This document shows positions 2,300-37,864 of a DNA stretch of 39,794 nucleotides, one piece after another (the first letter of the stretch is position 1; every line of letters starts with the position of its first letter). Under the pieces are notes generated by a model, which did no database searches, was not told where the DNA came from, and saw nothing but the letters and a program-made list of their open reading frames with translations. This DNA is from a virus, in UHGV virus genome UHGV-0220445. One strand, 5' to 3'. The position numbers and the translations under genes were made by a program.

Positions 2300-3110
2300 A
2301 TCACATCCTTAAATATCAATAAGTTATAGTTGTTTATACAATCAAGAAAACAACTGAATAACAGATCAACGAAACATCAACGCTTTCACCCGATTTGGTC
2401 TAAAAAATTGACGTTTTCACACATCACTGCTTATACCCGTAATTCTACGCAGCAGACAGCGCCACAGCGTCCAATTTTCACCACAGACGACCCAACACAC
2501 TACCAACAAAAACACACGCTCAAAATCGCTCCCGTTGCGTTACACAACCATATAAACAACTTATTTTCAGGTATAACGAAACAACTAAATAACACATATG
2601 CCATTTCCAAAAACAACCAACCTCTTTATGGCAGGCTACCGAAAAGACCCACCTCTTCTCCCCAGGCTACCGGACAACCAACCTAACTTTCACAGGCAAT
2701 CCGAAAAACATTCATACGCGCGATACCCACGATACGCCATTCCCCCAAATAGCGAAGCACACCAGAATCACTGAAACCCCCAACGAAGCCTGTAACCGCA
2801 AGGATTCTCTCAATCCCAAAAGACACGAAACATAACAATCACGGGAAACGCCATTACCCAATACACGAATAACTACAAAAGCCTTTCACACTCCAGACAA
2901 ACAACTCAAACACAATAACGAAAGCAATCGCCCACCTGCCATTACTCCATAGACGGAGAAGAACAATCACCAAAACGACGAGAACACCCCATAGAAGAAC
3001 CACCGCAAAACTAACGAAACCACATACACCGACAGGGAAAACAACACACCCAATTCACCAACAGAATTAGTCGCCGTATAGAACGTTCTGGAAGGAGTGA
3101 GCATTAACGC
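2300..3110 (+). other. Non-coding tract with strong strand compositional asymmetry (A+C-rich, G- and T-poor on + strand)
   Basis: Manual count of one 60-nt row (2461-2520): A 24, C 23, G 6, T 7; same bias visible by eye across ~800 bp; only a low-complexity ORF overlaps. Confidence 0.7.
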
Positions 3111-10574: not shown

Positions 10575-10576
10575 AA

Positions 10577-12136: not shown

Positions 12137-12182
12137 AAACCTCTTTCCTTAGTGCCTTTTGTATGTTATTTGGCTATTATAA

Positions 12183-12200: not shown

Positions 12201-12218
12201 GTGGATTGTAGCAATAAA

Positions 12219-15116: not shown

Positions 15117-15125
15117 GGATTTGCC

Positions 15126-15392: not shown

Positions 15393-15416
15393 TCGGTCTG
15401 GGAGCTTATTTAAAGA

Positions 15417-15471
15417 CCTGCTTCTGTATATATAAATAATAAGTAACTTATTAAATATATACGGAAGCAGG
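15417..15471. repeat. ~55-bp imperfect AT-rich palindrome with GC clamps (cctgcttc ... gaagcagg)
   Basis: Core aataagtaacttatt belongs to the late-type palindrome family; ~115 bp upstream of terminase small subunit. Confidence 0.7.
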
Positions 15472-15505
15472 CTTCGTAAGACATGCCAGACCTAATTAAA
15501 CACCC

Positions 15506-15569
15506 CAGAAAACAAGTTGGTTAGCAGATGCAGTAAACAAGTTGTTTTAGAGCGCATGGACGCGCTCTG
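15506..15569 (+). promoter_or_regulatory. Two copies of early-type motif (gaaaacaagttggtt, gtaaacaagttgtttta) followed by hairpin agagcgc-atggac-gcgctct
   Basis: Sequence pattern directly upstream of 15588 start. Confidence 0.4.
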
Positions 15570-15587
15570 TGTGTTTTAGAGGGATCT

Positions 15588-16220
15588 ATGACGGTCGAAA
15601 AAGACGAGGTAAAAACTCGCCTGACACCAGCGGAGTGGGCCGAAGCTGAAGCCAAATGGACGTCAGGCGAATATACACTCTCAAAGCTGGAGGAAGAGTA
15701 CGGCATTCGTCGTGAAACACTCTCCAGACATTTCAAAAAGCGAGGATTAGAGAAAGGCGCGGACTCTGTTGGGAAGATGGTTCGTGAGTCTCTTAAATCT
15801 GACGCAGAGCTTCGCGCTAAAGCCCGTGCGGAAAAGATAGAAGAACGTCGTACACGTTATGACGGCTGGGCGTATGCGTTGGGGCAGATGGTGATGGTCG
15901 AAGTCACTACGGCCAAACGTGAGGGTAAGCCTTTAGGGGCGATTGAGGATTCTCTCAAGAGCTTACAGAGAGCCAGTAATACCCTTGCAAAATGCTTTGA
16001 AGTTTCGTCCAAAGCATTGGGCATGGATCATGCGGAAAATGACGAGGAAGAAATTCCGAACCTGGTATTTGGTGAGCTTACGCCTTCCCAGGTGGCGAAA
16101 TTACGTCAGGAAGACGACGAGCCTGAAATCATCGATGACGAATTGCTTGAGACGTTAGAAGAAGAAGCTCTAAGCGAATTTGATGCGACAGATGATGGAA
16201 GTGAAGGGGAGGACGAATAA
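15588..16220 (+). CDS. Putative terminase small subunit
   Basis: Directly upstream of and overlapping the large terminase; HTH-like N-terminus, acidic C-terminal tail. Confidence 0.5.
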   Translation: MTVEKDEVKTRLTPAEWAEAEAKWTSGEYTLSKLEEEYGIRRETLSRHFKKRGLEKGADSVGKMVRESLKSDAELRAKARAEKIEERRTRYDGWAYALGQMVMVEVTTAKREGKPLGAIEDSLKSLQRASNTLAKCFEVSSKALGMDHAENDEEEIPNLVFGELTPSQVAKLRQEDDEPEIIDDELLETLEEEALSEFDATDDGSEGEDE

Positions 16221-17476: not shown

Positions 17477-17492
17477 GTAAGTAATTATCTAA
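17475..17492. promoter_or_regulatory. Late-type motif taGGTAAGTAATTATCTA upstream of portal
   Basis: Near-identical to the motif at 20897-20914. Confidence 0.45.
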
Positions 17493-17502
17493 GGTTATTC
17501 AA

Positions 17503-19077
17503 ATGGAATTGAACGACAAACAAATTAAGGATCTGGTGGCGCGACGCCACCCGGAATACGAAAAGAAAAAAGAACATTGGGACTTCCTCGCCAGCACTTA
17601 CGCTGGCGGGCGTGGTTGGTTTACAGACAATATCTTTCGTTACTTTAAAGAGGGAGATCAGGAGTTTAAGGAGCGAGTTGAACGTGCTTATCGCTTCAAC
17701 CACACTCGTGAGGTGGTAAACCTCATCAACAAATATCTCTTTAAAGAAGACATTCATAGAAATATCGAAGAGGCACCAGAGCAGATCCGCAATTTCTGGA
17801 AACGTGCGACTCGCCAGAATGCCTCTATTGACTCATTTATGGCCGCTATTGATTTGCAGTCGTCTATTTACGGTCGCATATGGGTTGTTGTCGATAGCAC
17901 GATGAGTGGTGATGTTGAGTCAGTAGCTGACGAGAAAAAGAAAGATGCTCGCGCCTACGCCTACTGGATTTCACCTCAGCAAATGCTGGATGTGGCATGG
18001 GACGACGACGGGAATATGTTGTGGGCGTTAATTGTGGAAGTCGCTCGTGATGACGCAGATCCTTTTACTTCTACAGGTCAGGAATACCAACGTTATCGTC
18101 TGTGGACACAAAACGAGTGGTATCTGTTCCGTGAGGAAGTGAAGAAGGGCGCTGGTGGAGCAGGTCGCCGTCAGGCAAAAGTTATTTTAGAGGATAGCGG
18201 TGAGCATAATCTCGGCGTAGTTCCTGTGTTTCCTGTTGATTGTATTGGAGAAAGTGAATCACCGTATTTCAGCCCATCGTTGATCGATGATATCGCTTAT
18301 CTTGATCGTGCGGTTGCAAACTATCTGTCAAACCTTGATGCCATTATTCAGGATCAGACATTTAGCCAGTTGGCTATACCGGTACAGTCGCTTTTACCTG
18401 GTGATGAAAACCACACTAAAGTGCTTGAAATGGGCACAAAGCGAGTCTTCACCTACGATTCTGAAGGCGGAAACCAGCCGTTTTATCTGTCACCAGACCC
18501 GAAACAAGCTCAGATGATCATCACTACGATTAAGACGGTGATTAACGAAATCTACCATTCAGTTGGTGTAGCTGGTGAGCGAACGAAGCAGGACAACGCA
18601 CAGGGAATCGATAATTCATCTGGTGCCGCAAAAATGTATGACTTCCAGCGTGTAAATAGCTTGCTTGTCACAAAAGCAGAGCGTCTGGAAAGGGCTGAAC
18701 GCCAAATCATGCTACTGGTTGCGAAATGGATGGGGGCAGATCTGGACGAAGACCACTCTTTAATTGCGTATCCAGAAAGTTTCGATATTCGTGGCCTTAC
18801 TGATGAATTTTCTGTTGCCGAGAAACTGTCATTACTTCAGGCACCGGACTCTGTACGTCGTCACCAGATGGAAATGCTTATTGAGAAGATTTTCCCGAAC
18901 ATTACTGAGGCGATGAAAAAGGAATTTGATAAAGATCTCTTGAATTTTCCTCCAAAAAATGATCTAAATACCCTTGAAAATAAGTCAGTACTTACTTATG
19001 ATCGTGGTACGGCCCAAGAAAGCGGGCAAGATCAACCCCGAGGGAATGGGGACTCATCTACTCAAGAGAACGAGTGA
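17503..19077 (+). CDS. Portal protein (524 aa)
   Basis: Size and position between terminase and scaffold. Confidence 0.7.
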   Translation: MELNDKQIKDLVARRHPEYEKKKEHWDFLASTYAGGRGWFTDNIFRYFKEGDQEFKERVERAYRFNHTREVVNLINKYLFKEDIHRNIEEAPEQIRNFWKRATRQNASIDSFMAAIDLQSSIYGRIWVVVDSTMSGDVESVADEKKKDARAYAYWISPQQMLDVAWDDDGNMLWALIVEVARDDADPFTSTGQEYQRYRLWTQNEWYLFREEVKKGAGGAGRRQAKVILEDSGEHNLGVVPVFPVDCIGESESPYFSPSLIDDIAYLDRAVANYLSNLDAIIQDQTFSQLAIPVQSLLPGDENHTKVLEMGTKRVFTYDSEGGNQPFYLSPDPKQAQMIITTIKTVINEIYHSVGVAGERTKQDNAQGIDNSSGAAKMYDFQRVNSLLVTKAERLERAERQIMLLVAKWMGADLDEDHSLIAYPESFDIRGLTDEFSVAEKLSLLQAPDSVRRHQMEMLIEKIFPNITEAMKKEFDKDLLNFPPKNDLNTLENKSVLTYDRGTAQESGQDQPRGNGDSSTQENE

Positions 19078-19098
19078 TAAGTAACAAAAGGAATTTTT

Positions 19099-19986
19099 AT
19101 GAATCTGTGGCAAATGCTTTTGGCCCGTCGTGGTCTGATGGATGTCGCTGAAGCGCATGAGCGTGGAGGCGCTGGCGGTGTAGCTGCTGATAATGAGCAG
19201 AGTACACAAGATCCTGACAAACAGGGTGAACAAAAAGAGCAGCCGAAGGGCGATGACGAATACGCTGGCATGACTCAGGAAGAGTTACTGGCCGAACTTC
19301 GTAAAACCAAGAAAGCTGGTGCTGAACTGCTGAAGGAGAACATGAAGCGCAAAGAGAAAGAGCGCACATTGGCCGATCAGCTTGCTCAGTACGGTGATAT
19401 CGATCCGGCTCGTGCTCGCCAGCTTTTAGAAGCTGAACAGGCCGCAGAAAACGCACGTCGTGAGGCGGAGCAAGCTGAACTGGAGCGTCGTGGTGAGTTC
19501 GATGCTGTTAAAAAACAGATGATCGAAGCACACCAGGCAGAGCTGGCACAGCGTGACGAACGTTATGCAGCACTGGAAAGTGAAAACGCATCACTGAAAT
19601 CTCAATTAGTCGAGATGACCGTGGGCGCTTCCTTCAGTAACTCTCTCTTCCTACGTGACAAAGTTCTGATGACCCCGGCAAAAGCCCGCGTGATCTACGG
19701 TTCTCATTTTGAAGTGGGTGAAGACGGTAGCGTAGTGGGTTATGACAAACCGGCAGGTCACAAAGAACGAGCTGTTCTGGTTGACGGTGAAGGTAAGCCG
19801 TTGCCGTTTGAATCCGCGATTGAACGCATTGTGCGGGCAGATCCGGAAGCTGACGCATTGATGCGTAGCGAAGCCAAGCAGGGTGTAGGCTCACATTCCA
19901 AATCGACCTACACAATATCCCAACCGAAGAACAAGTCGACTATGGATAAGTTGGCCTCCGGTCTGGGGAAAATTGGACTTAAGTAA
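19099..19986 (+). CDS. Scaffolding protein
   Basis: Charged, Ala/Glu/Arg-rich coiled-coil-like sequence immediately upstream of major capsid gene. Confidence 0.55.
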   Translation: MNLWQMLLARRGLMDVAEAHERGGAGGVAADNEQSTQDPDKQGEQKEQPKGDDEYAGMTQEELLAELRKTKKAGAELLKENMKRKEKERTLADQLAQYGDIDPARARQLLEAEQAAENARREAEQAELERRGEFDAVKKQMIEAHQAELAQRDERYAALESENASLKSQLVEMTVGASFSNSLFLRDKVLMTPAKARVIYGSHFEVGEDGSVVGYDKPAGHKERAVLVDGEGKPLPFESAIERIVRADPEADALMRSEAKQGVGSHSKSTYTISQPKNKSTMDKLASGLGKIGLK

Positions 19987-20011
19987 CATCTAAATCAAAG
20001 GGAATTGATAG

Positions 20012-23617: not shown

Positions 23618-24081
23618 AATACGATGCGCATCAGTTCAAACGTGCGGGGAATCGACTCAACAACAGCCAGAAAGCATTTAAGCGATATCTTATCCGGGAC
23701 ATGGAAAAGCTGGCGCGTTTGGTTGAGCGTCTCAGCCGTGCAATGGCCCCGCTGGAAACCGGATCTCTGGAGACAGCCATCTTTGCCAGGGTGATTAAAG
23801 AAGGTTATTCAGGGCTGCGTATTGAGCTTTCTGTGTCTGGAGCAAAACCACGTCAGGGGCATCCGGGCGTAGAAGTAGGTGACTATGCTAAGTACATGGA
23901 GCTGGGTAAATACCGACTCGGTTATCTTTCTCGAATGAAGAACGTGACAAACCCACCAATTGCCGGTGTTAAACCCCGTGTTGGGCCACACTTTCTGGAA
24001 AGAGCGGTGGAAATTAGCGAGAAGCAGTTCTCAGAAGCGATTCTTGAGGCTGCCAGAAAAGCCGGATTTACGAGAGGTTAA
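23608..24081 (+). CDS. Hypothetical neck/tail module protein (157 aa)
   Basis: ORF track; start overlaps upstream gene. Confidence 0.45.
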   Translation: MGLKYDAHQFKRAGNRLNNSQKAFKRYLIRDMEKLARLVERLSRAMAPLETGSLETAIFARVIKEGYSGLRIELSVSGAKPRQGHPGVEVGDYAKYMELGKYRLGYLSRMKNVTNPPIAGVKPRVGPHFLERAVEISEKQFSEAILEAARKAGFTRG

Positions 24082-24082
24082 T

Positions 24083-24466
24083 GTGTTTATTGAAGCGTTT
24101 GCAAGTTTGATGCAGAAGGCAAAGATTGGCACGGTCGGGACTGACATTTTCTGTCACTACTTGCCTGCCAATGTGAAATCTGGCGTCCTGCTTATTAACC
24201 CAAATACCGGCATCAGCATCGATCATGAGCTACAGGGCTTTTATCACGAATCATTCACAATCATTGTGCGTGGTTCGTCAATTACTACGACGGTTGAGAA
24301 AGCCAATAAAATCATTGAGATGTTTCCAGTAGAGGAAACGGAATCTGGTGGTGTTTATTTTCGACTGGTACGACCGATGGCGATGCCAATCATTTATCCC
24401 AAAAATGATGGAGCATTAATAGAAGCAGGCATTCCAGTTGAATTTGCTGGCTATTTATTGAATTAA
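24083..24466 (+). CDS. Hypothetical tail completion-type protein (~127 aa)
   Basis: ORF track (23960..24466); GTG 24083 follows SD gagagg. Confidence 0.4.
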   Translation: MFIEAFASLMQKAKIGTVGTDIFCHYLPANVKSGVLLINPNTGISIDHELQGFYHESFTIIVRGSSITTTVEKANKIIEMFPVEETESGGVYFRLVRPMAMPIIYPKNDGALIEAGIPVEFAGYLLN

Positions 24467-24490: not shown

Positions 24491-24540
24491 TGTTAGCGCA
24501 ATGAATGCGTAGAATTAACGGAAAAAGGAGTTTTCCATCA

Positions 24541-25287
24541 ATGTCTAATACCCATGTAAAAAACATCAAACTTGGTGCCTGTAAGGTGTCGTTTGGTGGT
24601 GTGGATTTGGGTTACACCAAAGGTGGTGTTCAGGTTGAAGTAGCCACTGAAACGCTGAAAGTCACCGTCGATCAGTTGGGGCAGACCGTAATTTCCGAAT
24701 TAGTTCAGGGGCGCAACATTACCATCACCGCGCCTCTGGCTGAGTCTGTACTCCAAAACATGGTTGACCTGATGCCTGGTTCTACTCTGAGCGAAGATGA
24801 CAACTCTGTCACGATCACATCTGCACAGGGCGTTAACCTGATTGATGTGGCGAAGGAGCTGGTTCTGACTCCGCAGGACACCACCGACTATGTGTTGACC
24901 ATCCCGAAAGCGGCAACCGCGGGCAACTTCACTATGACCTACCAGTCTGATGATGTTCGTGTGTTCTCTGTTCAGTTCAGCGCATACCCGGATGATGAAG
25001 GCGTTCTGGGCAAAATGAGCGGTCCTAAACCGGTAAAAACTGTGTCGATCTCACCGGAATCTCCAACCGTAAAAGCTGGAGAAACTGTGCAACTGACAGC
25101 CGAAATCACTCCAGCTGATGCCGCAGACAAAACCGGTGTTTGGGAATCCGAAGACCAGGAAAAGGCCACGGTAGATCAAACGGGTCTGGTACGTGGTGTG
25201 GCGCAGGGTTCTACAAATATCTCCTTCACCAGCAATAGCGGTGGTAAGAAGGCAACTAAGTCAGTAACGATTAACCCCGCAGATTAA
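24541..25287 (+). CDS. Major tail protein with C-terminal Ig-like domain
   Basis: Position before G/T chaperone and tape measure; C-terminus has the same BIG2-like pattern as 20961..21881. Confidence 0.7.
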   Translation: MSNTHVKNIKLGACKVSFGGVDLGYTKGGVQVEVATETLKVTVDQLGQTVISELVQGRNITITAPLAESVLQNMVDLMPGSTLSEDDNSVTITSAQGVNLIDVAKELVLTPQDTTDYVLTIPKAATAGNFTMTYQSDDVRVFSVQFSAYPDDEGVLGKMSGPKPVKTVSISPESPTVKAGETVQLTAEITPADAADKTGVWESEDQEKATVDQTGLVRGVAQGSTNISFTSNSGGKKATKSVTINPAD

Positions 25288-25300
25288 TCAGTAATTAAGC

Positions 25301-25327
25301 AGAGGCTCAGGATGGGCCTCTCTTTTA
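25301..25327 (+). terminator. Terminator-like hairpin after major tail gene (agaggc ... gcctct + CTTTT)
   Basis: Stem-loop plus T-run. Confidence 0.5.
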
Positions 25328-25342
25328 AAAGGATTTTAACCA

Positions 25343-25660
25343 ATGACCAAATTACTCGATCTCGATTCCATTCTGCCTCCGAAGAAAAGCATCAAATTTG
25401 GCGGTCAGGAATATCCCATCGTTGAAATGACGGTAGGTCTGTTCGTTTCCATCAAGCAGATGGAAGGCAAAGATCTCATGAACATGTCTCCTGTTGAGCA
25501 AGTGACAGCTTATGCAGATCTGGTTCGTAAGGTTATCCCTTCAGTACCTGACGAAGTTCTTGAAAAACTGACTGTTCCGCAACTCCAGCAGATCTTCACC
25601 TTCGCTATGGAAGTGATTGATGAAGAAAACGAAAAAGCGGCTGGCGAAGGGGCAAAGTAA
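25343..25660 (+). CDS. Tail assembly chaperone (gpG-like)
   Basis: Size (105 aa), acidic C-terminus, directly upstream of tape measure. Confidence 0.6.
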   Translation: MTKLLDLDSILPPKKSIKFGGQEYPIVEMTVGLFVSIKQMEGKDLMNMSPVEQVTAYADLVRKVIPSVPDEVLEKLTVPQLQQIFTFAMEVIDEENEKAAGEGAK

Positions 25661-26010
25661 TTTCCCGCGATGAATCCGGGACAAGGACCGTCTCAATAGA
25701 TCTCGGATTCTATTTCAGTCGTGTAGTTGCTCACTACGCCGTGTCGCCATTAGAGCTACTGAACGTTCCTCTCACGATGTTCTGGATGCTCAGTCGCAAT
25801 ATAGACCGTCTGCGTGCGGAAGAGGATGTCCGCAACTTACAAGTCGCTCGTGCGTCCCAGGCGGATGGCGAGGCTGTGAAGGCGTTCATGGAGGGTTTGC
25901 AACTCAGGATTGGAAGACCAGTCGTAACAGATAAAGTCTACGATCCAAGCCAGGATAAGGCAGACCCTGACGCCAAAGAGCAACTGATGCAAATATTTGG
26001 CAGAGGATGA
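25624..26010 (+). CDS. gpT-like -1 frame extension, putative G-T frameshift product
   Basis: -1 frame is open from 25624 and overlaps the last 12 codons of gene G; ORF track lists 25741..26010; no canonical slippery heptamer found. Confidence 0.35.
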   Translation, partial: RKRKSGWRRGKVISRDESGTRTVSIDLGFYFSRVVAHYAVSPLELLNVPLTMFWMLSRNIDRLRAEEDVRNLQVARASQADGEAVKAFMEGLQLRIGRPVVTDKVYDPSQDKADPDAKEQLMQIFGRG

Positions 26011-29000
26011 CAAGGGAATGTCACAAAACGTAGAGTTTATCCTGTCGCTGGAAGACAAACAGTTTACAGCGTCAATCGATCGTGCGGGGAAACTGCTTAC
26101 TCGATTTGGTGAGCAGGTAACAAAGCCTGCTCAAAAAATCCAAACCTTTGAACGCTCTTTGGGTTCGGTCGCCCGTATCATTGGCGTTCTGGAAAGCAAG
26201 CTCGATTCTACGGCAGATAAACTACAGGATGTAGCTGCCGGTTTTGAGCTTGCTTCAGATGCTACGCGTAAAATGCGTGGCAACATCACCAGCCTCAATT
26301 CTGGTCTTAAAGCCCTGATTGAGCGCGTCGATACGACAACTTCTTCAGTAGATAAACTCACCGCGTCATTACGTAAAGTGCAATCAGAGCTAAATGATTT
26401 CTCTGATTGGGCGACCTATGCAAGCAAAAGCGCAAGCCGCTTTGGTACGGAGGTCAAAGAAGCCTCTGCGTCCGTGAGTGGTATGAATACGCGCCTTAAT
26501 ACCACGACGAAGCGACTCAGTAATTGGGGTGTCACAACGAGTCAGGCTGCCGAGGGACTGAAAAAGGTTCGTGAGCAGATGGACGAAGTTATCGGACGTC
26601 AGCAACTGATTAGCAAGCCGGTACGCGTTCGTACATCTGGAAGTGGTGATGGTGGTAGCGGGCGGCGTAGCGGCGCTTCTGGCCATAGCGGTAAAAGTAA
26701 CGAAGGAGGTATGTTCTCTGGCCTTCGTGGCAACATTTTCCTGCTTGGCGAGATCGGAGATGCAGCAAGAACGGTTACTGACATCATGTTTGGGTGGCAG
26801 AAGCCTATTGTTGAAGCTGCGGCCGAAATGGAACGTATGCGGGTGATGCTTCGAGGGTTGAATAAGGAGAAGTCCAACCCGGGTCAGGCTGCCGCTGATG
26901 ATATGAAGTACATCGTAGACATGGCTCAAAATGCGCCGTTCGCGATGCAGGCGTTAACAGACTCCTTCGTGAAGTTTCGTTCTGCTGGCTTAGATCCAAC
27001 CGATGGTTCTCTGAAGGCGCTGGTGGACTCCGTTGCTCGTTTTGGTGGTGATAGTGAGCTGTTGAAACGTGCGGCTGTGGCCGTTCAGCAGATGTCCGGT
27101 AAGGGCGTTGTGTCAATGGAAGAGCTACGTCAGCAATTAGGTGAAGCCGTTCCTAACGCGATGCAGGCAATGGCAGACGCCGCAGGCATCACTATGGGGG
27201 AACTGACTAAAGCCGTTGCCAGCGGTACGGTTGAGGCAAAACAGGCGTTGTCTCTGATGTTTGTTGGTCTGCGTGCGGAGAATGAGAACGCAGCGAAAGA
27301 CATGATGCAAACCTACACAGGTGCGCTGGCGCAACTTCAGACGTCATTCACGTTATTTGCTGATCGGGTTGGTCAGGCCGGATATCTGGATTCTCTATCG
27401 AAGGGGATGAAAGAACTGGCTTCAATCATGAATAGCGCCGAAGGGATTTCGTTTGCCAATTCTTTAGGTTCGGGGTTAACAACGGCAATCGATGGGTTGC
27501 GTCAGCTTGCTCAATGGTTAGCAAAGAACCAAGAGCTGGTAATTAATCTCGGTAAGGTCGTGGCCGCGATGGTTGCGTTCAAACTGATGCGAGCAGGGAT
27601 CATGGGGGTAGTTGTCGCTGGCAGCCAGATGGTTAGCACCTTTGCCACGATGGCGACCGCTATACAGACTCCATTTAACCTCGGCGCTACAGCAGTAACC
27701 CGATTCAATCGTGCGGCACGTATGGGGCTGGCTCCGATCCCCTCTCTTATTTTCGCCATCCGTGGGGCGATTACGGGGCTTAAAGGCGCTTTTGCTGGAT
27801 TAACGGCGTTCATTGCGGCAAACCCTATAGGGGCAGCATTTACAGTCGCCACTGTAGCTGTTGCTGGCCTAATCACGTACATGACCATGCTCCGCAGCGA
27901 AACTTCAAAGGTCGTTGACGAGATTAGGAAAATACCAGAGGCGATGACGGCGGCCAAACGTGCACAAATGGCCGACCGCGCAGAAAAGCTCGAAAAGCAG
28001 ATTCTTGCTGATCAACGAGCATTAAAAACTGGTGAGGGTGTTAATTACGTATCTAACTCTGCCGGTGTTATTACTCACAAAGAGTCGAAGGCTGACATCG
28101 AAGCACGCCTGAAAAAAAATCAGGAAGAGTATCAAAAGATAACCGGCACGATAGCTCTTGGTGACGGCGCTGTAGCAAAGCGTTTGGCTAAAGAGGCTGC
28201 CGAATCTCAGATTGAGAAAATTCGAGCGGAAAACCAGATTTTCGCGGCAACATTCGTGAAAGCCCGGCAGGAGGCTCTGGATAAGATCCAGAAAATCAAT
28301 GATGACGGTTCACTTTCAGATGACGAAAAGAACAAGCTATTGGCACCGTTACGTGAAACGGTAAACAAAAGCTATCTGGAGCCTGCGCAAAAACTGGTTG
28401 ATTCACTTTCTTCTCGTAAGAATGCGACCGAGAAGCAAATCGCGACTCTTAATGATCAGCTTGAAAAAGCCAAAAAGGATGGCAATACCGAGCAAATCCA
28501 GAAACTGCAAGGCAGTATTCGTGGTTATCAGGAGCATTTGGAAGCCGTTGCTCAGGAACTTACTCAGGCAGAGTTCGAGAGAGATAACGCGGCCAAAACT
28601 GGTAAGGGCGTAATGTCAAACCAGGGGACTGTTCTTGGGTTAGGTACAACTGATAAAGCTGCTCAGAAGGCGTTGGCGCAATATATGCGAAACCAGATGG
28701 ATTCTGCGACTTATCAGCGTACTTTGCCTGACGGCACTCCGATGATGGACTTCGAAGGTAAGCCGATTATTGGGCCTAAACAACTCAAGACGCAGCTTAA
28801 TTTGCAGAAAGCATCCAGCGCCAGCTCTCTGGAGAAAATGAGCGATGAAGAGCGTGCCGCAGCCATTGCTGCACTGACTAAAGCTCGTGAACAGGATGCA
28901 GCAGCTGCCGAGAAAGCAGCCCAACGATCAGCTAACGCCTCGCAGCGTGCGGCCAAGAAGGAACAGGCAGCGCAACAGAAACTGGCAGCCGGATACCAGA

Positions 29001-30589
29001 AGGCTCTGGACAAAGCCGATCAGCTTATGGGGCAAATGGGTGAAAGCTCTAAGGCTACGGTATCGTTTGATCAGTCTCTTCGCGATACAACGAAATCGCT
29101 GACAGATTTGGCTAATGCGGTTCCTAACGAGTTCATCACTCAAGAGATGATCGACAAGGCGAAAAAACGTCTTGAAGACCTCAAAAATGCGACACCTGAA
29201 TATCGCGAGATGTTTAATCGCCGCAATGTTGAGCAGATGATCTCCACTTGGGCACCGGAGGCGGATTCCATTATTAGTGCTGGCTATACGCCGTCTCGCG
29301 AAGAGAAAGTTACTGATTTCGAAGACACCTACAACCGCAATCTCAAAGCGTTGATAGAACTTCGTGATAAGGCGTCTGATCCTAAAGTTGTGGCGCTTTA
29401 TACAAAGAAAATCAATCAACTGATTGCTGCTGGCAATACCGCGCTTATTAAAGAGACGGGGACTGCGACGCAGAAGTTGGCACTGGAATACGAAAATCTG
29501 GCAGAGCAGATCGAAAGCACCTGGACTGATTTGTTTAGTGGCTTAACTGATGTCCTGACTGATTTCGTTATTAACGGGAAGATGAGCTTCTCCAGCCTAT
29601 CTCAGTCCATTTTGAAAGATATCACCAATATGGTCGTGAAGTCGCAGATCACGCTGCCTCTAATGAACATGTTGGGGATGGGAACCACCGCAGCTGGTAG
29701 TTCACAGAGTGGTAATTTGCTCACCGGGGTTGCTTCCGCAGTTGCCAATCAAGGTGTGCGCATAAGCAACACTGTTAATGGCGACAAGTCGGTAGGAGAA
29801 GCCACGAAGGAGACGTCCAGTTCGGTAACTGGATTGGGGCAAACGACACAGCAGACCACCAGCGCAATTGGCACAGCAACAAATGCGATTGGTAGCTGGG
29901 TATCAGGGCTATTTGATAGCACCGAAGCCAAAGATGCTGAGACAAAAGCAGTGAAGGATTCCATCTTCTCGATGCAGAACCTCAGCTCTGTTACCGGCGC
30001 TCTGTCTGCCGCGTTTGCAATGCTTGGAGCTAATGCTTCCGGCTCTGGTAATAAGTGGTTGAATTTCGGCGCGACAGTTGCATCTGGTTTGGTTTCAGTA
30101 TGGGCTGGTGGTGGATTCGATGGATTGATGTCCGGTTCTTCTGGCTCAACTTCCGGGTTCAACAATCTGACCAGTTCTGCTGCCGATGGCACGAATGGTA
30201 TTCCTGCAATTCCGAAGTTTGCAAATGGTGGCATATTCGGAAAAGACGGCGTGATCCCGCTCCGGGCATACCAGAAAGGCGGTATCGCCAACTCACCTCA
30301 ATTGGCGTTGTTTGGGGAAGGCGATATGAATGAGGCGTATGTTCCATTGCCTGATGGTCGAACAATCCCTGTAACGCTCAGTACCGATGGTATGAGTGGA
30401 GGAGGAAATGTTCTTTCTCCGGTATCAATTGAGATCAACGTCCATAGTGACGGTAGCACAACTGAATCCGGCGATACAGAAAGCATATGGAACAATGCCG
30501 CTCAACGGATGAAAGCAATCGCGCTTGAGACTATCGCTCAAGAGAAACGCCCTGGCGGATCACTCAACCCAAACACTCAACGTAACTAA
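25997..30589 (+). CDS. Tail tape measure protein (1530 aa)
   Basis: Length, Ala/Gln-rich helical character, hydrophobic Gly-rich segments, position. Confidence 0.85.
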   Translation: MAEDDKGMSQNVEFILSLEDKQFTASIDRAGKLLTRFGEQVTKPAQKIQTFERSLGSVARIIGVLESKLDSTADKLQDVAAGFELASDATRKMRGNITSLNSGLKALIERVDTTTSSVDKLTASLRKVQSELNDFSDWATYASKSASRFGTEVKEASASVSGMNTRLNTTTKRLSNWGVTTSQAAEGLKKVREQMDEVIGRQQLISKPVRVRTSGSGDGGSGRRSGASGHSGKSNEGGMFSGLRGNIFLLGEIGDAARTVTDIMFGWQKPIVEAAAEMERMRVMLRGLNKEKSNPGQAAADDMKYIVDMAQNAPFAMQALTDSFVKFRSAGLDPTDGSLKALVDSVARFGGDSELLKRAAVAVQQMSGKGVVSMEELRQQLGEAVPNAMQAMADAAGITMGELTKAVASGTVEAKQALSLMFVGLRAENENAAKDMMQTYTGALAQLQTSFTLFADRVGQAGYLDSLSKGMKELASIMNSAEGISFANSLGSGLTTAIDGLRQLAQWLAKNQELVINLGKVVAAMVAFKLMRAGIMGVVVAGSQMVSTFATMATAIQTPFNLGATAVTRFNRAARMGLAPIPSLIFAIRGAITGLKGAFAGLTAFIAANPIGAAFTVATVAVAGLITYMTMLRSETSKVVDEIRKIPEAMTAAKRAQMADRAEKLEKQILADQRALKTGEGVNYVSNSAGVITHKESKADIEARLKKNQEEYQKITGTIALGDGAVAKRLAKEAAESQIEKIRAENQIFAATFVKARQEALDKIQKINDDGSLSDDEKNKLLAPLRETVNKSYLEPAQKLVDSLSSRKNATEKQIATLNDQLEKAKKDGNTEQIQKLQGSIRGYQEHLEAVAQELTQAEFERDNAAKTGKGVMSNQGTVLGLGTTDKAAQKALAQYMRNQMDSATYQRTLPDGTPMMDFEGKPIIGPKQLKTQLNLQKASSASSLEKMSDEERAAAIAALTKAREQDAAAAEKAAQRSANASQRAAKKEQAAQQKLAAGYQKALDKADQLMGQMGESSKATVSFDQSLRDTTKSLTDLANAVPNEFITQEMIDKAKKRLEDLKNATPEYREMFNRRNVEQMISTWAPEADSIISAGYTPSREEKVTDFEDTYNRNLKALIELRDKASDPKVVALYTKKINQLIAAGNTALIKETGTATQKLALEYENLAEQIESTWTDLFSGLTDVLTDFVINGKMSFSSLSQSILKDITNMVVKSQITLPLMNMLGMGTTAAGSSQSGNLLTGVASAVANQGVRISNTVNGDKSVGEATKETSSSVTGLGQTTQQTTSAIGTATNAIGSWVSGLFDSTEAKDAETKAVKDSIFSMQNLSSVTGALSAAFAMLGANASGSGNKWLNFGATVASGLVSVWAGGGFDGLMSGSSGSTSGFNNLTSSAADGTNGIPAIPKFANGGIFGKDGVIPLRAYQKGGIANSPQLALFGEGDMNEAYVPLPDGRTIPVTLSTDGMSGGGNVLSPVSIEINVHSDGSTTESGDTESIWNNAAQRMKAIALETIAQEKRPGGSLNPNTQRN

Positions 30590-30631
30590 CTATCGACTGC
30601 CCCGACCGGGGCAGTCTCACAAGGATGTGAG

Positions 30632-30967
30632 ATGGAAAGACAAACGTTTAATTGGTATCCAGATTACGAATCTGAAAAAAGCGTAAAACCGAATGTAACG
30701 ATACTTAATTTTGGTGATGACTACGAGCAGCGACAGGCTCAAGGTCTTAATCGTATTAAAGAAGAATGGTCGTTAACCTTTACCAGATCATACAACGAAA
30801 TTAATGCAATCGATGACTTCCTGACTGAGCGAGCAGGCGTTGAGTCGTTCTATTGGGTTAATCCAAGAGGAAAACGGATTGTAGTTGTATGTGACAGTCA
30901 TACGGTCAAGCGATATCAGGGGTACTGTGTCTTAACTGCTACATTCAGACAAGTATTTGAGGCTTAA
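30632..30967 (+). CDS. Minor tail protein (lambda gpM-like, 111 aa)
   Basis: Size and position after tape measure. Confidence 0.65.
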   Translation: MERQTFNWYPDYESEKSVKPNVTILNFGDDYEQRQAQGLNRIKEEWSLTFTRSYNEINAIDDFLTERAGVESFYWVNPRGKRIVVVCDSHTVKRYQGYCVLTATFRQVFEA

Positions 30968-30972
30968 GTATC

Positions 30973-30997
30973 TAGATAAGTAAGTACTAATTTACTA
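30973..30997. promoter_or_regulatory. Late-type motif tagataagtaagtactaatttacta
   Basis: Palindrome family. Confidence 0.4.
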
Positions 30998-31049
30998 TCA
31001 TTGTGGCGCTGACAGGATGTTAGCGCCTACTTATTTCAAGGATGAAACA

Positions 31050-31748
31050 ATGGGAATTAAAGCTGATATTCAGAGCTTATCTCCCTCTGCACTCATTGAG
31101 TTGTTCGTACTGGATATGTCGAACACAACTTCAGGGGGGAAGCTATTCTTCCACGCCGGAACAAACGAACTGATGCAACCGGTCGTCTGGCAAGGAGTGA
31201 CATACGAGCCGTGGCCAATCAAAGCATCAGGCTTTGACAAAACGGGCCAGGGAACGTTGCCACGTCCAAAAATTCAGGTATCGAACTTTGCCGGAACTGT
31301 CTCTGCGGAAGTTCAGGCAAACGACGATCTTGTTGGCTGCCGCATTATTCGCAAGATGACGCTGGCTCGCTTCCTCGATGCCGTTAATTTTAAAGACGGC
31401 AACCCAACAGCAGATCCAAACCAACATTTCCCGGATGAAATGTGGTTTATCGAACAGAAAACTCTCGAAACTCATCAGGTTGTCGAGTTTGAATTGTCCA
31501 GTGTGTTCGATTTGATGGGGGTGCAACTTCCGTATCGTCAGATCATTAAAAACACCTGCCCGTGGAAATACCGAGGGCCAGAATGCGGCTATACCGGTCC
31601 ATATTTCGACAAAAATAACCAGCAGACGTCTATGTCTGGTGCGGATTACTGCACAAAACGTTATGACGCCTGTAATGCGCGTCGGAATTATTTTGCCGAC
31701 GGAGTGATCCATTTTGGCGGATTTATTGGAGCTACGCGGTATGGGTAA
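31050..31748 (+). CDS. Minor tail protein (lambda gpL-like) with C-terminal Cys cluster
   Basis: Cys motif CPWKYRGPECGY...YCTKRYDACNARRNYF; ORF track 31017..31748, ATG 31050 chosen. Confidence 0.7.
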   Translation: MGIKADIQSLSPSALIELFVLDMSNTTSGGKLFFHAGTNELMQPVVWQGVTYEPWPIKASGFDKTGQGTLPRPKIQVSNFAGTVSAEVQANDDLVGCRIIRKMTLARFLDAVNFKDGNPTADPNQHFPDEMWFIEQKTLETHQVVEFELSSVFDLMGVQLPYRQIIKNTCPWKYRGPECGYTGPYFDKNNQQTSMSGADYCTKRYDACNARRNYFADGVIHFGGFIGATRYG

Positions 31749-32538
31749 TAAAGCAATCCCTGAGCTTGGCTCTGACGTTATGCAGCAAATCTATCTCTGC
31801 GCCATAAATCGCTACCCTAATGAAGCGTGTGGCTTTCTGGTGAGAACTAATGGCGACAAATATCGCTTTATGGAAGCGCGAAATGTTTCGGAGAACCCGC
31901 AGAACACTTTTGTAATGCACGTTGACGACATTATGGCGGCAGAGGATGCGGGTGATGTTATCGCAATCTGGCATTCACATACTGATGAATCAGCAGAAGC
32001 ATCTGATGCCGATCGTGCAGGCTGCGAAGCGACGGAAGTTCCGTGGATGATTCTGGCTATTCGCAAGAATGTTGAGGGAGATGCCCCTTTCCATTTTAGC
32101 GAGATGAATGTGATCACACCTGATGGTTTCGAAATGCCATACCTGGGTAGACCGTATGTATTTGGCGTATTCGATTGCTGGATGTTGTGTCGGGACTATT
32201 TGAAGCGTGAGTTTAACGTCGAGCTTAACCCGAACGCACACCTGCATATTCCATCGTGGTACACCGGCGATAACGACATTCTCGACCAGAACTACCGAAA
32301 CGAGGGATTGGTACGGCTTGCGCCTGGAACAGAGCCTCAACGTGGGGACGTCTTCTTTATTCAATACGGGAAAATGCCAGATCACTGCGCGGTTTATATC
32401 GGCGATGGAATGATTCTTCATCACCAGATCGACCGTCTTAGTTGTCGTGCTTATTACGGCGGAATGTATCAGAAACATACGACGCATCACTTGCGTCACA
32501 GAGACTTGCTCAAGGGAGATGAGACGTGTCTGAGTTAG
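31741..32538 (+). CDS. Tail tip assembly protein (lambda gpK-like; JAB/MPN + NlpC/P60-like)
   Basis: JAMM motif WHSHTDESAEASDAD; ATG 31741 follows SD ggag. Confidence 0.7.
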   Translation: MGNKAIPELGSDVMQQIYLCAINRYPNEACGFLVRTNGDKYRFMEARNVSENPQNTFVMHVDDIMAAEDAGDVIAIWHSHTDESAEASDADRAGCEATEVPWMILAIRKNVEGDAPFHFSEMNVITPDGFEMPYLGRPYVFGVFDCWMLCRDYLKREFNVELNPNAHLHIPSWYTGDNDILDQNYRNEGLVRLAPGTEPQRGDVFFIQYGKMPDHCAVYIGDGMILHHQIDRLSCRAYYGGMYQKHTTHHLRHRDLLKGDETCLS

Positions 32539-33119
32539 TTCATGTGCAGCTTGGCGGCCCTATGGCCAAACATTTTGGCCGCCACTGGCATCTAAAGGTG
32601 CGCAATACAAAACAGGCTCTGGATTTAATTGAGGCCAACAAGCCTGGGTTTAAAGCATGGATGAAGCGCAATATCAAAACCTATGACCGTTACCACATCC
32701 AGATCACCAATAAACAGGGCCACAAGTGGTCTGTTGACGAAAGTGAATATCAGATGATGGGGCAGTCTGACAACATTGCCAAAATCCGCATTACACCTGT
32801 TCCGCGAGGAAGCGGTGGATCTGCTTTTGGGTGGTTTCAGACGGTAGTAGGGGCCGCTTTGTTGGTTGTATCGGCGGTAGTGATGCCTGCTTTAGCACCT
32901 CTCGGTTTGTCACTGATGATGGGCGGCATATCACAAATCATATCGCCACAAGCCACTAACGAAAGTGTGAGACAGGCAGATAACTCGAACTCTTATTATT
33001 TCGACGGCCCTCAAAATACAGAAAACCAGGGCAACCCAGTACAACTTATCTATGGCGAGGAAATTCTGGTTGGCTCACAGGTTGTGAGTTCTTCAATCAC
33101 GATTGACCAGCTAATGTAA
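32526..33119 (+). CDS. Tail assembly protein (lambda gpI-like)
   Basis: Size and position between K-like and J-like genes; hydrophobic Gly/Ala-rich segment. Confidence 0.65.
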   Translation: MSELVHVQLGGPMAKHFGRHWHLKVRNTKQALDLIEANKPGFKAWMKRNIKTYDRYHIQITNKQGHKWSVDESEYQMMGQSDNIAKIRITPVPRGSGGSAFGWFQTVVGAALLVVSAVVMPALAPLGLSLMMGGISQIISPQATNESVRQADNSNSYYFDGPQNTENQGNPVQLIYGEEILVGSQVVSSSITIDQLM

Positions 33120-33136
33120 ACAAGGATTTTTTGAAC

Positions 33137-36100
33137 ATGGAACAGTTCAAGAAGAAAAAGCTACCGCTGTTTATTGCCGGTGCGGGTGGTAAAAAAAGCA
33201 GCAAAAGCTCCAGCCGTACACCGGTTGAAGCCGACGATACCGTAAATTCTCGTGCAATGGCCGCTATCCTCGATCTTCTTGGGGAAGGGGTAATTGGCGG
33301 CTTAGTAAATGGCGCAAGATCTATTTTTATCGACGATCTGCCGATTGTAAATGAAGACGGTTCCTCCAACTTCAGCGGAATCACATGGGATTTTCGCGAC
33401 GGTTCACAAGACCAGACTCCAATGTCTGGCTTTGATTTCGTTGAAACGCCTAAATCCGTCAATATCCAGTTAAAAAAAACACATTATGTAACGGTTTCAA
33501 TCGATAACGATGAAGCTGATCGGGTTCGTGTCATCATGAAGTTTCCTTCTTTGCGAAGCATAGATAAAAAAACTGGTGACACGAACGGTACGACTGTTGA
33601 GTACAAGTTCCAGATAGCAAATGGCGACTCAACATTTGTAGATGTGGTCGCTGAAGGTGAAAAAAGCGTTGGCATTAAGCTAACAGCAAAGAAGACAGGT
33701 GTTTATTACCGTAGCTATGAGCTGAAGCTGCCTAAGCCTGGACGAGCATACAAGGTTCGTGTGGTCCGTATTACCGATGATAACAGCAGCCAGTATCTCT
33801 ATAACGATACATGGGTGGACTCAATAGGTGAGATTGTAGATACACCGATGAACTACCCAAACTCTGTGCTGGTGGGTCTGAAGGTTAATTCTGAGCAGTT
33901 TGGTAGCACCATGCCATCTCGTTCGTATTTGGTACGTGGATTAAAAATTCGCGTGCCGTCAAACTACAACGAGGCCAGCAACACTTATGATGGTGTATGG
34001 GATGGCACTTTTAAGCTGTTGTCTTCTTCAAACCCCGCGTGGATTCTCTTTGATTTGCTGACCAATGCTCGATATGGCCTTGGTCAGTATGTGTCGGAAT
34101 CTATGATTGACCTTGGCCAGTTGTACCAGATTGGTCGATATTGTGACGAAGAGGTCGATGATGGTTTTGGTGGCAAAGAGAAACGCTTTGCAATCAATAC
34201 GCAGATCACCAGTCGACAGGACGCATACCGGCTAATTCAGGATATTGCCGGAGCATTCCGCGGCATGGTGTTTTGGGCTGGTGGGATGGTTAACATCATG
34301 CAGGATAGCCCATCAGATCCGGTAATGATGTTTACCAACTCTAACGTCAAAGATGGATTGTTTACCTATAAAGGTTCTGCGCGTAAAGATCGCCCATCCG
34401 TTGCGCTCGTAACCTACAACAACAAGGAGGACGGTTATAAGCAAAACATCGAGTACGTCGAAGATCAGGACGCAATGCGCCGTTATGGTGAGCGTAAAAC
34501 AGAAGTCGTAGCATTTGGCTGTACAAGCCGAGGGCAGGCTCACCGAGTTGGTTTGTGGCTTTTATATACCGCCAGAATGGAGTCGGATGTAATTACATTT
34601 ACTGCCGGCTTAGACGCGTCATTTCTGATGCCTGGTGAAACCGTTCTGATTCAGAACAAATATCGCGCAGGCAAACGTAACTCAGGTCGAATTGTGGCGT
34701 TTACCAAAAACAGCGTCACACTCGATGCGCCTGTGTCGTTAGCCAAAGGCGGCTGCTTTATTCGAATACTGAATCAGGAAGGCAAAATCGTTGAACGCGA
34801 TGTTCTTGAAACTGGCGAAAATATAACAAAAGTTACGTTTTCAAAAGCCCTGTCTTCGGCTGAAACGCCTGTTTTGAACGGCGTCTGGACTATTACAGAA
34901 CCAGACCTCGAACCTATGCGCGTTCGCATCGTTAACATCGCGCAGGGGGAAACGCCGGGTAGCTTTGACATCACCGCTGTTGAGAACAATCCGTCTAAAT
35001 ATGAGGCAATCGACAATGGTGCAACGCTGATTCCGCAGAATACGACGGTATTGGACCCAACTTACTCCAAGCCATCTAATTTGCAAATCACTGAAGGGAC
35101 TTATCTCTCAAGCCCGGGCAACCTGTCAGTAAAACTGACTGCAACATGGGAAGGGAAATCTCCAGAGTATTGGATCAGTTGGCGACGTTCTGATGAAAAC
35201 AATGTATCGAACTGGCAATCGGCGCGTGTAACCGAAGAGCAATACGAAATCGTTAATGTCGCGGAGAATGGACGCTACGACTTCCAGCTGTATGCGGTTT
35301 CATTCAACGGTAAAAAAACAGAGATTATCAGTGCCGTTTATCAGGTGTTGGGCACAATGACACCGCCGGATTCCCCAACGTCATTAACGGCCGTTGGAGA
35401 CTATCGTAATGTGATACTGAATTGGGTTAATCCAGATTCGGTAGACCTTGATCACATTAATGTTTACGCATCCCAGACCAACAATCTGGATACGGCGAAA
35501 CTGATCGCAGAGTCTGCAAGCACCACCTTTACACATGCTGGTCTTGGGGATAGCGAAACGTGGTATTACTGGGTTCGAGCATCGAACAAGCGAGGTATGT
35601 TAAGTCCTCCGAACTCAAACTTGGGTACAGAGGCGACAACTCGCGATGTACTGTCGTTCCTGACTGGCAAAATTACATCTTCCGAGCTTGGTCAGGCTCT
35701 GCTTGAGGACATCAACAGCAAAGCCTCTCAAGAAGCAGTTGACGAGTTAAATGAGCATATCAACCAGAGCGTCGAATCTTTGGAGGGGGCGGTAAACGAC
35801 GTTAAGGAAGATATAGCTGAATTAGATAAGCAGTTCAGCGATAACCTCGCGGATTTTGAAATAAAATTCAACGAGCGTAGCGATGCTTTGGAGAACGCAC
35901 AAACCGAGCTTAAAGGTGAGGTTTCGGCAACGATCGACAAGGTCAATGAAGCGTTTGAAAAAATTGATGCTACTGATGCTGCAATTGTTGAAATCGAAAA
36001 CACCGTATCTGAACACGATAAAGCTCTCGCTAATACAGTCGAGGCAATAAAGGCTGCAAGAGATGAAGCGGCGGCTCTTATTGCTAAGGAAAGCGAGGCT

Positions 36101-37864
36101 CGTGTTGAAGGCGATGCTGCAAACGCTAAACAACTGGAAGTGTTGCAGTCAACGGTAGAGGAAAGCTCCGCTGCCGTTGAAGAAATGAAAAAGACGGTTG
36201 CAGAGGTCGATCGTGCCAGTGCAGAACTGACTACGAACATTGAGGCGTTAGCCAAAACAAATATTGACCTGGCTCTTCGTCAAGATGAAGACCAGCACAA
36301 GCAGATGGTCAATAACGCGAAGATCGCAACAACACAGAAAACCTTTGCTGATGATATGTCTGCAATGGCCACGAAGGTTGAGGAAATTCGCGTAGAAATT
36401 GGCGAAGACATTAAGGCCAGTATTCTGGAAGAGTCCACCGCTCGTGCCGATGGCGATGAAGCGTTGGCAAAGCGTGTCACTCAGCTGCAATCTAAGTTTG
36501 AAGGAGATATCAGCGCGGCGATTAGTACAGAGCAGGAGGCTCGTACATCTGCCGATGAAGCTCTGACGACACAGATCACTCAGCTTGAGTCGAAAGTAAG
36601 CAACGATATCGTCGCAGCTATTAAGGAAGAGCAAGAAGCCCGAGCAACGGAAGATTCGGCTCTGGCAAGCCAGATCACCCAACTTCAGGCAAAGGTTGAT
36701 GATGATATTTCTGCTGCAATACGTAGTGAGCAGGAGGCCCGAGCAAGCGGGGACTCTGCGTTAGCCAAACAAATAAACCAGCTTCAGTCAAAGGTTGACG
36801 GTGATATATCCGCTGCCATCACTCAGGAGCAGGAGGCCAGAGCAAGTGCTGACCAGGCGCTCTCACGAGAAATTAACAGCCTGCGAGCACAAACCGGAAC
36901 TGATATTGCCGCAGCGGTTGCTGTAGAGACAAAAGCAAGGACTGATGCCGATAGTGCATTGTCTACCCAGATTACGTCTCTTACAGCAAAAGCTAATGAT
37001 CTCGAGGCGTCTCTTGCCAGAGAAACAACGGCTCGTGCAGATGGTGATACCGCTTTAACAAAAGAGGTTTCAAGTTTAAAAGCACAGACAGCGAAAGATA
37101 TTAGTGCGGCCGTTGCAGTTGAAACGCAGGCTCGAACTGATGCTGACTCGGCGTTGTCGTCTCAGATCACCAAGCTGACCTCTCAATACAAAGAGGATAT
37201 TAAAGCGGCTGTAGCAACCGAAACGAAAACGCGTACAGAGCAAGATGCTGCATTGGCGACTCAAATCACAAACTTAGAGTCTCAAACGGCAGCCAACATT
37301 TCCGCGGCGGTAACAACTGAAACGACAGCGAGAACGCAGGCAGATAATGCTCTGAGTGGGCGAATCGATACTCTGAAAGCAGAGGTGGATGGAAATACCG
37401 CGACAATTCAACAGCAGGCAACAGCTATTGCTGATACCAACAAAAAAGTATCAACCGCGTGGACGTTGAAAATGGAGACTTCAACGAGCGGAGGGCAGAA
37501 GTATGTTGCCGGTATTGCGCTTGGTATTGACACCACTGGGCTATCTCAGTTTTTGGTTCAGGCGGACAGGTTTGGTTTGGTCAACTCTGTTAACGGGAAG
37601 ATCACAACGCCATTTGTTATCGAAAACAGTATCGCCTATATGAATGGAGCGTATATCAAGGATGGCACAATCACCAATGCAAAAGTAGGCGATCTGCAAT
37701 CTACCAATTTTGTTAGCGGTAGATCTGGATGGCGGTTCGGCAAAAATGGAACGCTTGAGATCAACGGTAATAGCGGCGGCAATGGGCGATTGGTTATAAA
37801 TGGTCAGCGGATTGACGTTTATGACGATAACAACGTCCTACGAGTAAGAATTGGCCGTCTGTGA
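33137..37864 (+). CDS. Tail tip / central fibre protein (lambda gpJ-like, ~1575 aa) with C-terminal 35-aa tandem repeats
   Basis: N-terminal half resembles J-family sequence (NPAWILFDLLTNARYGLGQY); ORF track starts at TTG 33131, ATG 33137 follows SD aagga. Confidence 0.8.
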   Translation: MEQFKKKKLPLFIAGAGGKKSSKSSSRTPVEADDTVNSRAMAAILDLLGEGVIGGLVNGARSIFIDDLPIVNEDGSSNFSGITWDFRDGSQDQTPMSGFDFVETPKSVNIQLKKTHYVTVSIDNDEADRVRVIMKFPSLRSIDKKTGDTNGTTVEYKFQIANGDSTFVDVVAEGEKSVGIKLTAKKTGVYYRSYELKLPKPGRAYKVRVVRITDDNSSQYLYNDTWVDSIGEIVDTPMNYPNSVLVGLKVNSEQFGSTMPSRSYLVRGLKIRVPSNYNEASNTYDGVWDGTFKLLSSSNPAWILFDLLTNARYGLGQYVSESMIDLGQLYQIGRYCDEEVDDGFGGKEKRFAINTQITSRQDAYRLIQDIAGAFRGMVFWAGGMVNIMQDSPSDPVMMFTNSNVKDGLFTYKGSARKDRPSVALVTYNNKEDGYKQNIEYVEDQDAMRRYGERKTEVVAFGCTSRGQAHRVGLWLLYTARMESDVITFTAGLDASFLMPGETVLIQNKYRAGKRNSGRIVAFTKNSVTLDAPVSLAKGGCFIRILNQEGKIVERDVLETGENITKVTFSKALSSAETPVLNGVWTITEPDLEPMRVRIVNIAQGETPGSFDITAVENNPSKYEAIDNGATLIPQNTTVLDPTYSKPSNLQITEGTYLSSPGNLSVKLTATWEGKSPEYWISWRRSDENNVSNWQSARVTEEQYEIVNVAENGRYDFQLYAVSFNGKKTEIISAVYQVLGTMTPPDSPTSLTAVGDYRNVILNWVNPDSVDLDHINVYASQTNNLDTAKLIAESASTTFTHAGLGDSETWYYWVRASNKRGMLSPPNSNLGTEATTRDVLSFLTGKITSSELGQALLEDINSKASQEAVDELNEHINQSVESLEGAVNDVKEDIAELDKQFSDNLADFEIKFNERSDALENAQTELKGEVSATIDKVNEAFEKIDATDAAIVEIENTVSEHDKALANTVEAIKAARDEAAALIAKESEARVEGDAANAKQLEVLQSTVEESSAAVEEMKKTVAEVDRASAELTTNIEALAKTNIDLALRQDEDQHKQMVNNAKIATTQKTFADDMSAMATKVEEIRVEIGEDIKASILEESTARADGDEALAKRVTQLQSKFEGDISAAISTEQEARTSADEALTTQITQLESKVSNDIVAAIKEEQEARATEDSALASQITQLQAKVDDDISAAIRSEQEARASGDSALAKQINQLQSKVDGDISAAITQEQEARASADQALSREINSLRAQTGTDIAAAVAVETKARTDADSALSTQITSLTAKANDLEASLARETTARADGDTALTKEVSSLKAQTAKDISAAVAVETQARTDADSALSSQITKLTSQYKEDIKAAVATETKTRTEQDAALATQITNLESQTAANISAAVTTETTARTQADNALSGRIDTLKAEVDGNTATIQQQATAIADTNKKVSTAWTLKMETSTSGGQKYVAGIALGIDTTGLSQFLVQADRFGLVNSVNGKITTPFVIENSIAYMNGAYIKDGTITNAKVGDLQSTNFVSGRSGWRFGKNGTLEINGNSGGNGRLVINGQRIDVYDDNNVLRVRIGRL
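36400..37400 (+). repeat. About ten tandem ~105-bp (35-aa) coding repeats inside the J-like gene
   Basis: Repeating unit like EEQEARASADEALTTQITQLESKVSNDIVAAIK; DNA copies diverged. Confidence 0.75.

Follow-up and report, generated by a model that had tools for sequence, protein, structure and literature searches.

The stretch of DNA analysed here, referred to below as the window, comprises 39,794 nucleotides (nt) of the UHGV virus genome UHGV-0220445, and this report concerns the gene for a tail tape measure protein (TMP) that it carries on the plus strand at 26018..30589. The gene was delimited using the open reading frame (ORF), matches to Pfam, TIGR02675 and PHROG 1292, and the annotation of relatives, among them Escherichia phage Cyrano, which is the phage-plasmid pLF82 of E. 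coli LF82, and Salmonella phage SSU5. The reading frame is uninterrupted over 25997..30589, or 1530 codons when counted from a TTG, and a stop-free run of about this length has a chance probability of (61/64)^1530, about 1e-32. The first-pass annotation had given the product as 1530 amino acids (aa); the open frame is real, whereas the TTG start is probably seven codons too early. The TTG at 25997 lies within the final codons of the upstream ORF, which stops at 26008-26010, and no Shine-Dalgarno sequence was found upstream of it. An in-frame ATG at 26018 sits 10 nt past AGAGGA (26002-26007). The product read from this ATG is 1523 aa long and aligns from residue 1 to residue 1523 onto positions 1-1523 of PHROG 1292, and the ATG matches the annotated TMP starts of Cyrano (1525 aa) and SSU5 (1526 aa). 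TTG 25997 was set aside as the start on these grounds, and translation almost certainly begins at ATG 26018 and yields a TMP of 1523 aa. The 7 residues lost by this shift account for about 1 nm of predicted tail.

The product contains the Pfam domain TMP_3 at aa 264-451 (26807..27370, plus strand; 95.5 bits against a cut-off of 41, E = 4.3e-27), a core region common to many siphophage TMPs. Within it lies the match to the NCBIfam model TIGR02675, tape_meas_nterm (aa 335-409; 70 bits against a cut-off of 21.35, E = 1.5e-19). The lambda gpH-type C-terminal domain Tape_meas_lam_C is found at aa 1150-1215 (29465..29662, plus strand; Pfam, 49.1 bits against a cut-off of 23, E = 6.1e-13). PHROG 1292, named 'tail length tape measure protein', is matched over the full length with 2941 bits, and the homologue is labelled tape measure protein in Cyrano, in SSU5 and in RefSeq E. 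coli plasmids. A search of solved structures (E <= 0.01) returned just three weak TMP matches, including 9ndy_F and 8vjh_Q, both over the same stretch as the TMP_3 core; 8VJH is phage Chi (PMC11945409). The lambda gpH chain was not found among the solved structures at this threshold. Judged by its sequence, the ORF product is a genuine TMP, and the earlier call of a tape measure protein is borne out by TMP_3, Tape_meas_lam_C, TIGR02675, PHROG 1292 and the gene order. The candidate role of a lysin-bearing TMP, raised by a match to PHROG 1768 'endolysin', was rejected: the match covers aa 232-545 and spans TMP_3, and no muralytic domain (lytic transglycosylase or peptidase) was identified in the TMP by Pfam or NCBIfam.

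Along the protein, a coiled-coil-like N-terminus (aa 1-200) is followed by a Gly-rich linker (aa ~205-235) and the TMP_3 core. Hydrophobic, membrane-like segments occur at aa 514-535 and 597-625, with moderately hydrophobic sequence between them (27557..27892, plus strand), as defined by Kyte-Doolittle values of at least 1.6 in 19-aa windows. A long, highly charged stretch occupies aa ~640-1150, and aa ~1215-1400 are rich in Gly, Ser and Thr. The C-terminal region, aa 1366-1523 (30113..30586, plus strand), is Gly/Ser/Thr-rich and mostly non-helical according to its composition and AlphaFold2. The AlphaFold2 models were made of two overlapping halves as single sequences, with a mean predicted local distance difference test (pLDDT) score of ~44, and only their secondary structure was used; at this low confidence the predicted helix amounts to 74% overall, 80% in aa 1-1365 and ~20% in aa 1366-1523. 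The C-terminal motif FANGGIF...LALFGEGDMNEAYVPLPDGR is kept in the TMPs of the window, Cyrano and SSU5, and aa 1401-1522 match Rhizobium phage TMPs. By analogy with the structures of T1, lambda and Chi (PMC11945409), the C-terminal region (aa 1366-1523) probably sits in the tail tip and would not measure tube length. No internal tandem duplications were detected by Tandem Repeats Finder in 25300-30700, nor anywhere in the window.

At the DNA level the TMP gene is 98.8% identical to that of Escherichia phage CMS-2020a, 97.7% to that of Cyrano and 79.6% to that of SSU5, and positions 851-20000 of the window are 96-98% identical to CMS-2020a and Cyrano by megablast. The gene is present in 233 of the 5,426 complete E. 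coli genomes, in 239 places, every one of which is on a plasmid; the carrier plasmids are 101-112 kb long among the 8 records listed. By these similarities the window is the structural region of a common SSU5/Cyrano-type phage-plasmid of ~108 kb in E. coli. Protein homologues number 2,428 at E <= 1e-10; in each of the 120 listed, identity is 96% or more and length falls at 1523-1527 aa. TMP length spreads over no more than 4 residues (1523-1527 aa) across the members from E. coli, Shigella and Salmonella. In the SSU5-like phages of Klebsiella the TMP gene spans 4524-4533 nt, corresponding to ~1510 aa, with 75-77% identity. Comparison of the TMP codons of the window with those of SSU5 gives 662 synonymous-only differences and 149 amino-acid changes. 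The TMP is under strong purifying selection, and its sequence and its length are both strongly constrained, as expected for a ruler.

The tail of phage lambda is ~150 nm long, and well-studied siphophages range from 0.13 to 0.176 nm of tail per TMP residue; applied to the TMP of the window, these ratios give 198-268 nm. Under the simple rule of 0.15 nm per residue, 1523 aa correspond to 228 nm. An alternative estimate, in which the helical aa 1-1365 (205 nm) are supplemented by a lambda-like tip of ~15 nm, gives ~220 nm, and the expected tube has ~50-60 rings at ~4.2 nm per ring. In T1, a TMP of at least 956 aa is enclosed by ~34 rings of 42 Å (PMC11945409), and the calibration computed from these values is ~0.15 nm per residue. 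For Cyrano, Misson et al. (PLoS Pathog 2023, PMC9928086) multiplied the 1,525-aa TMP by 0.15 nm per residue and searched for tails of ~230 nm. The particles assigned to Cyrano measured 259.1 +/- 11.9 nm in the tail and 76.4 nm in the head, described there as 'dimensions typical for SSU5 phages' (PMC9928086). For SSU5, a siphovirus, a comparative table gives a head of 70 nm and a tail of 220 nm (PMC7553841). The two published tail lengths, 220 and 259 nm, bracket the 228-nm prediction and are both within ~15% of it. A tail of ~230 nm, longer than that of lambda, had been proposed for this virus from 0.15 nm per residue. The recomputed value and the electron microscopy of the relatives agree with that figure, and the comparison with lambda also holds, both relatives having tails well above the lambda length. 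By analogy with these relatives, and from the length rule, an expected tail of ~220-260 nm, clearly longer than that of lambda, is supported. The estimate is correct and already known, because exactly the same calculation was used by the authors of PMC9928086 to seek particles.

Very probably, then, the ORF encodes the tail length TMP of an SSU5/Cyrano-type siphovirus that is kept as a ~108-kb plasmid in E. coli. Several points weigh against this reading. The tail lengths of 220 and 259 nm come from relatives, the element of the window being known here from its genes alone; the window covers ~40 kb of a ~108-kb element, for which particle production is only predicted. The two published tails differ by 39 nm despite TMPs of equal length. 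The attribution of the particles to Cyrano was made by elimination (PMC9928086), and the 220 nm of SSU5 is a second-hand figure (PMC7553841). The helix fractions are weak evidence, being derived from single-sequence AlphaFold2 models with a mean pLDDT of ~44, and the slip site proposed below for the tail assembly chaperones is putative and non-canonical.

It is unlikely that the TMP is real while the number of residues times 0.15 nm is a poor predictor that fits 230 nm by coincidence. The Gly/Ser-rich, non-helical aa 205-235 and ~1366-1523 and a tip-embedded C-terminus would then not measure, or other factors would contribute to length. This possibility draws on the tails of 220 and 259 nm, equivalent to 0.144 and 0.170 nm per residue for TMPs of equal length, on the ~20% helix predicted for the C-terminal 158 aa, and on the T1 TMP, which is ordered only at its C-terminal residues, located in the tip (PMC11945409). 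However, both measured tails fall within +/-15% of the simple prediction, negative-stain conventions (tip and neck counted or not) easily explain tens of nm, and the ~220 nm of the helical part plus tip nearly equals the simple estimate. The 39-nm gap between Cyrano and SSU5 is most likely methodological. That tail length in this group depends also on the conformation or sequence of the TMP, which would follow if both measurements were right, is improbable; the central coiled-coil patch of Cyrano (aa ~610-750 and 826-900), the main sequence difference, would then be a possible source of the gap, and the TMP of the window, with its SSU5-type patch, would give the shorter tail. No deletion or duplication genetics of SSU5-type TMPs was found in the literature.

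There is little reason to regard the gene as an intact relic on a defective phage-plasmid that makes no virions, and hence no tail. The element is indeed only partly contained in the window, PMC8969562 describes a Klebsiella SSU5-like plasmid as a plasmid with conserved phage genes, and the virion yields of Cyrano were low (PMC9928086). Against this, every tail gene in the window is intact, purifying selection is strong and length conservation strict across hundreds of plasmids, and Cyrano, whose gene is 97.7% identical, gives encapsidated genomes above background, with matching particles observed (PMC9928086). That the product is instead a long SMC/Rad50-like coiled-coil protein or a membrane protein is hardly credible. 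Weak NCBIfam matches to SMC/Rad50 models occur at aa 15-196, far under the cut-offs, and one UniRef entry bears the name 'Putative membrane protein'; but the SMC/Rad50 scores of 15-31 bits against cut-offs of 567-1087 are typical coiled-coil noise, whereas the TMP-specific domains exceed their curated cut-offs and the gene sits where a TMP gene is expected in a tail module. An SMC/Rad50-like identity is effectively refuted by the score shortfall, the TMP domains and the gene position, and noise matches of this type agree with a helical, coiled-coil TMP.

The TMP gene lies in a module with the order terminator, major tail protein, G-like, T-like (-1 frame), TMP, M, L, K, I and J, which is identical in Cyrano and SSU5. 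All the tail genes inside the window are intact, and by gene content and order the module is a complete lambda-type tail module. All of the genes described here are on the plus strand. The tail terminator (23960..24466) matches Pfam Phage_tail_terminator_6 (7.1e-16) and is called 'Tc1 Tail completion protein' in Cyrano. The major tail (tube) protein (24505..25287) matches PHROG 1280 and major tail protein PHROGs, carries a C-terminal Big_2 Ig-like domain (Pfam, 5.8e-26) and corresponds to CYRAN_12, 'Tail protein', of Cyrano; its start is probably at about codon 13, which would give 248 aa as in Cyrano. The lambda-type tail tip genes M to J (30632..37864) were assigned from PHROGs, Pfam and the M/L/K/I/J annotation of Cyrano: M at 30632..30967 (PHROG 14, Pfam Phage_min_tail), L at 31017..31748 (PHROG 18, Pfam Phage_tail_L), K at 31714..32538 (PHROG 30, with Prok-JAB and NLPC_P60 domains by Pfam), I at 32526..33119 (PHROG 32) and the central fibre J at 33131..37864 (PHROG 31). 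The K-like tip protein joins a JAB/MPN domain with an NlpC/P60 peptidase domain, and the same pairing is present in lambda gpK. The NlpC/P60 domain of K is the sole recognisable domain of cell-wall-hydrolase type among the tail-module proteins scanned, J having been scanned with PHROGs only.

Two ORFs, putative tail assembly chaperone genes, separate the major tail protein gene from the TMP gene. The first, of 105 aa (25343..25660), is gpG-like by position and matches PHROG 893 (4.5e-49), whose function is not named. Its proposed chaperone role follows from synteny, the gene occupying the place that gene G has in lambda. The second is a gpT-like extension in the -1 frame (25624..26010), recognised from the frame translations and from a match of 25741..26010 to PHROG 1131; in databases it is given as a separate 89-aa protein starting from GTG 25741. 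The gpG-like ORF gave no match at all in Pfam or NCBIfam, and no family match pointing to a chaperone was obtained in these scans. The open part of the -1 frame begins at 25624 and runs over the final 12 codons of the G-like ORF. The G stop and the annotated T start are 80 nt apart, and in this gap every difference between the window and SSU5 leaves the T frame open, two of the changes being synonymous in that frame. The maintenance of an open frame across this gap fits a G-T frameshift fusion, and the T-like ORF is probably made as such a fusion, by -1 frameshifting near GCA AAG TAA (25652-25660). The sole candidate slip site is the A AAG beside the TAA stop in this sequence, and no canonical X XXY YYZ heptamer is present.

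The mechanism proposed for tail assembly follows the lambda paradigm (Katsura and Hendrix 1984; Mahony et al. 2016; both as cited in PMC9928086). The largely alpha-helical TMP, a trimer in the T1 virion structure (PMC11945409), would be kept in solution by the G and G-T chaperones, and its C-terminal end would be anchored in the tip complex formed by M, L, K, I and J. The major tail protein would polymerise round it as hexameric rings until the N-terminal end of the TMP is reached, where growth would end and the terminator would bind and cap the tube. On infection the TMP would be expelled, and its hydrophobic aa 514-625 probably help to build a conduit through the envelope; the analogy with other TMPs suggests such a channel or membrane-insertion role for the hydrophobic segments at ejection.

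Several observations were made elsewhere in the window. The region 2330-3060 (plus strand, ~730 bp) has an extreme strand asymmetry, with a GC skew of -0.35 and an AT skew of +0.29 in 2001-3000. Its plus strand is nearly pure A/C and is without tandem repeats. In Cyrano the 'hypothetical protein' CYRAN_103 is annotated over the part matching 2330..2686, and the next ~490 bp are unannotated there; rather than holding a gene, the region may be non-coding, either origin-like or specifying an RNA. The first ~850 bp of the window gave no match to Cyrano or CMS-2020a by megablast, which suggests a variable junction there. In the related phages a gene annotated as methionyl-tRNA synthetase lies just upstream of the region matching window position 851 onward (90996-93029 in the Cyrano record).

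The TMP gene is well annotated and widespread and has been characterised before, and the significance of the present result goes little past annotation: it shows the window to be the part of an SSU5/Cyrano-type element that carries the structural genes, this group being present in ~4% of complete E. coli genomes. It also indicates which virions to expect, namely siphovirus particles with tails of ~220-260 nm and heads of ~70-76 nm, and this may aid their recognition in induced lysates.

Among the closest known systems is the TMP of Cyrano (CYRAN_15), which shares 95% aa and 97.7% nt identity and an identical gene neighbourhood with the TMP of the window and has 1525 aa against 1523 aa. It differs in a divergent patch at aa ~610-750, with 54-75% nt identity, and a milder one at aa 826-900. 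In window coordinates, Cyrano is 54-90% identical at the nucleotide level over 27850-28270 and 28490-28720, stretches in which the window keeps its usual ~80% identity to SSU5. At these patches the TMP of the window retains SSU5-type sequence, and the net change in length is only 2 residues. The pattern of similarity indicates a recombinational replacement in the coiled-coil region of Cyrano, with length kept within 2 residues. The TMP of SSU5 (SSU5_015, 1526 aa) is 90% identical in aa over its full length and lies in the same tail module. It differs in its Salmonella host, in its DNA (79.6% nt identity), where the divergence is mostly synonymous, and in small insertions and deletions, which fall within the Gly-rich linker (aa ~208-235) and close to the C-terminus. 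A more distant counterpart is the TMP of Chi (8VJH chain Q, 1431 aa), likewise a long TMP of an enterobacterial siphophage with a lambda-like tip; the similarity is weak but significant at aa 33-542 (E = 1.3e-06), confined to the N-terminal third, and the overall lengths differ.

The lambda gpH protein has 853 aa, so that the TMP of the window is ~1.8 times longer, and outside the C-terminal domain no sequence similarity between the two was detectable in the solved-structure search (E <= 0.01). The slip site of lambda, G GGA AAG, also differs from the candidate slip site in the window. Shared with lambda are Tape_meas_lam_C and the order of a U-like terminator, a V-like tube protein with a C-terminal Ig domain, G/T, H, M, L, K, I and J, and this analogy suggests that the ruler works as it does in lambda.

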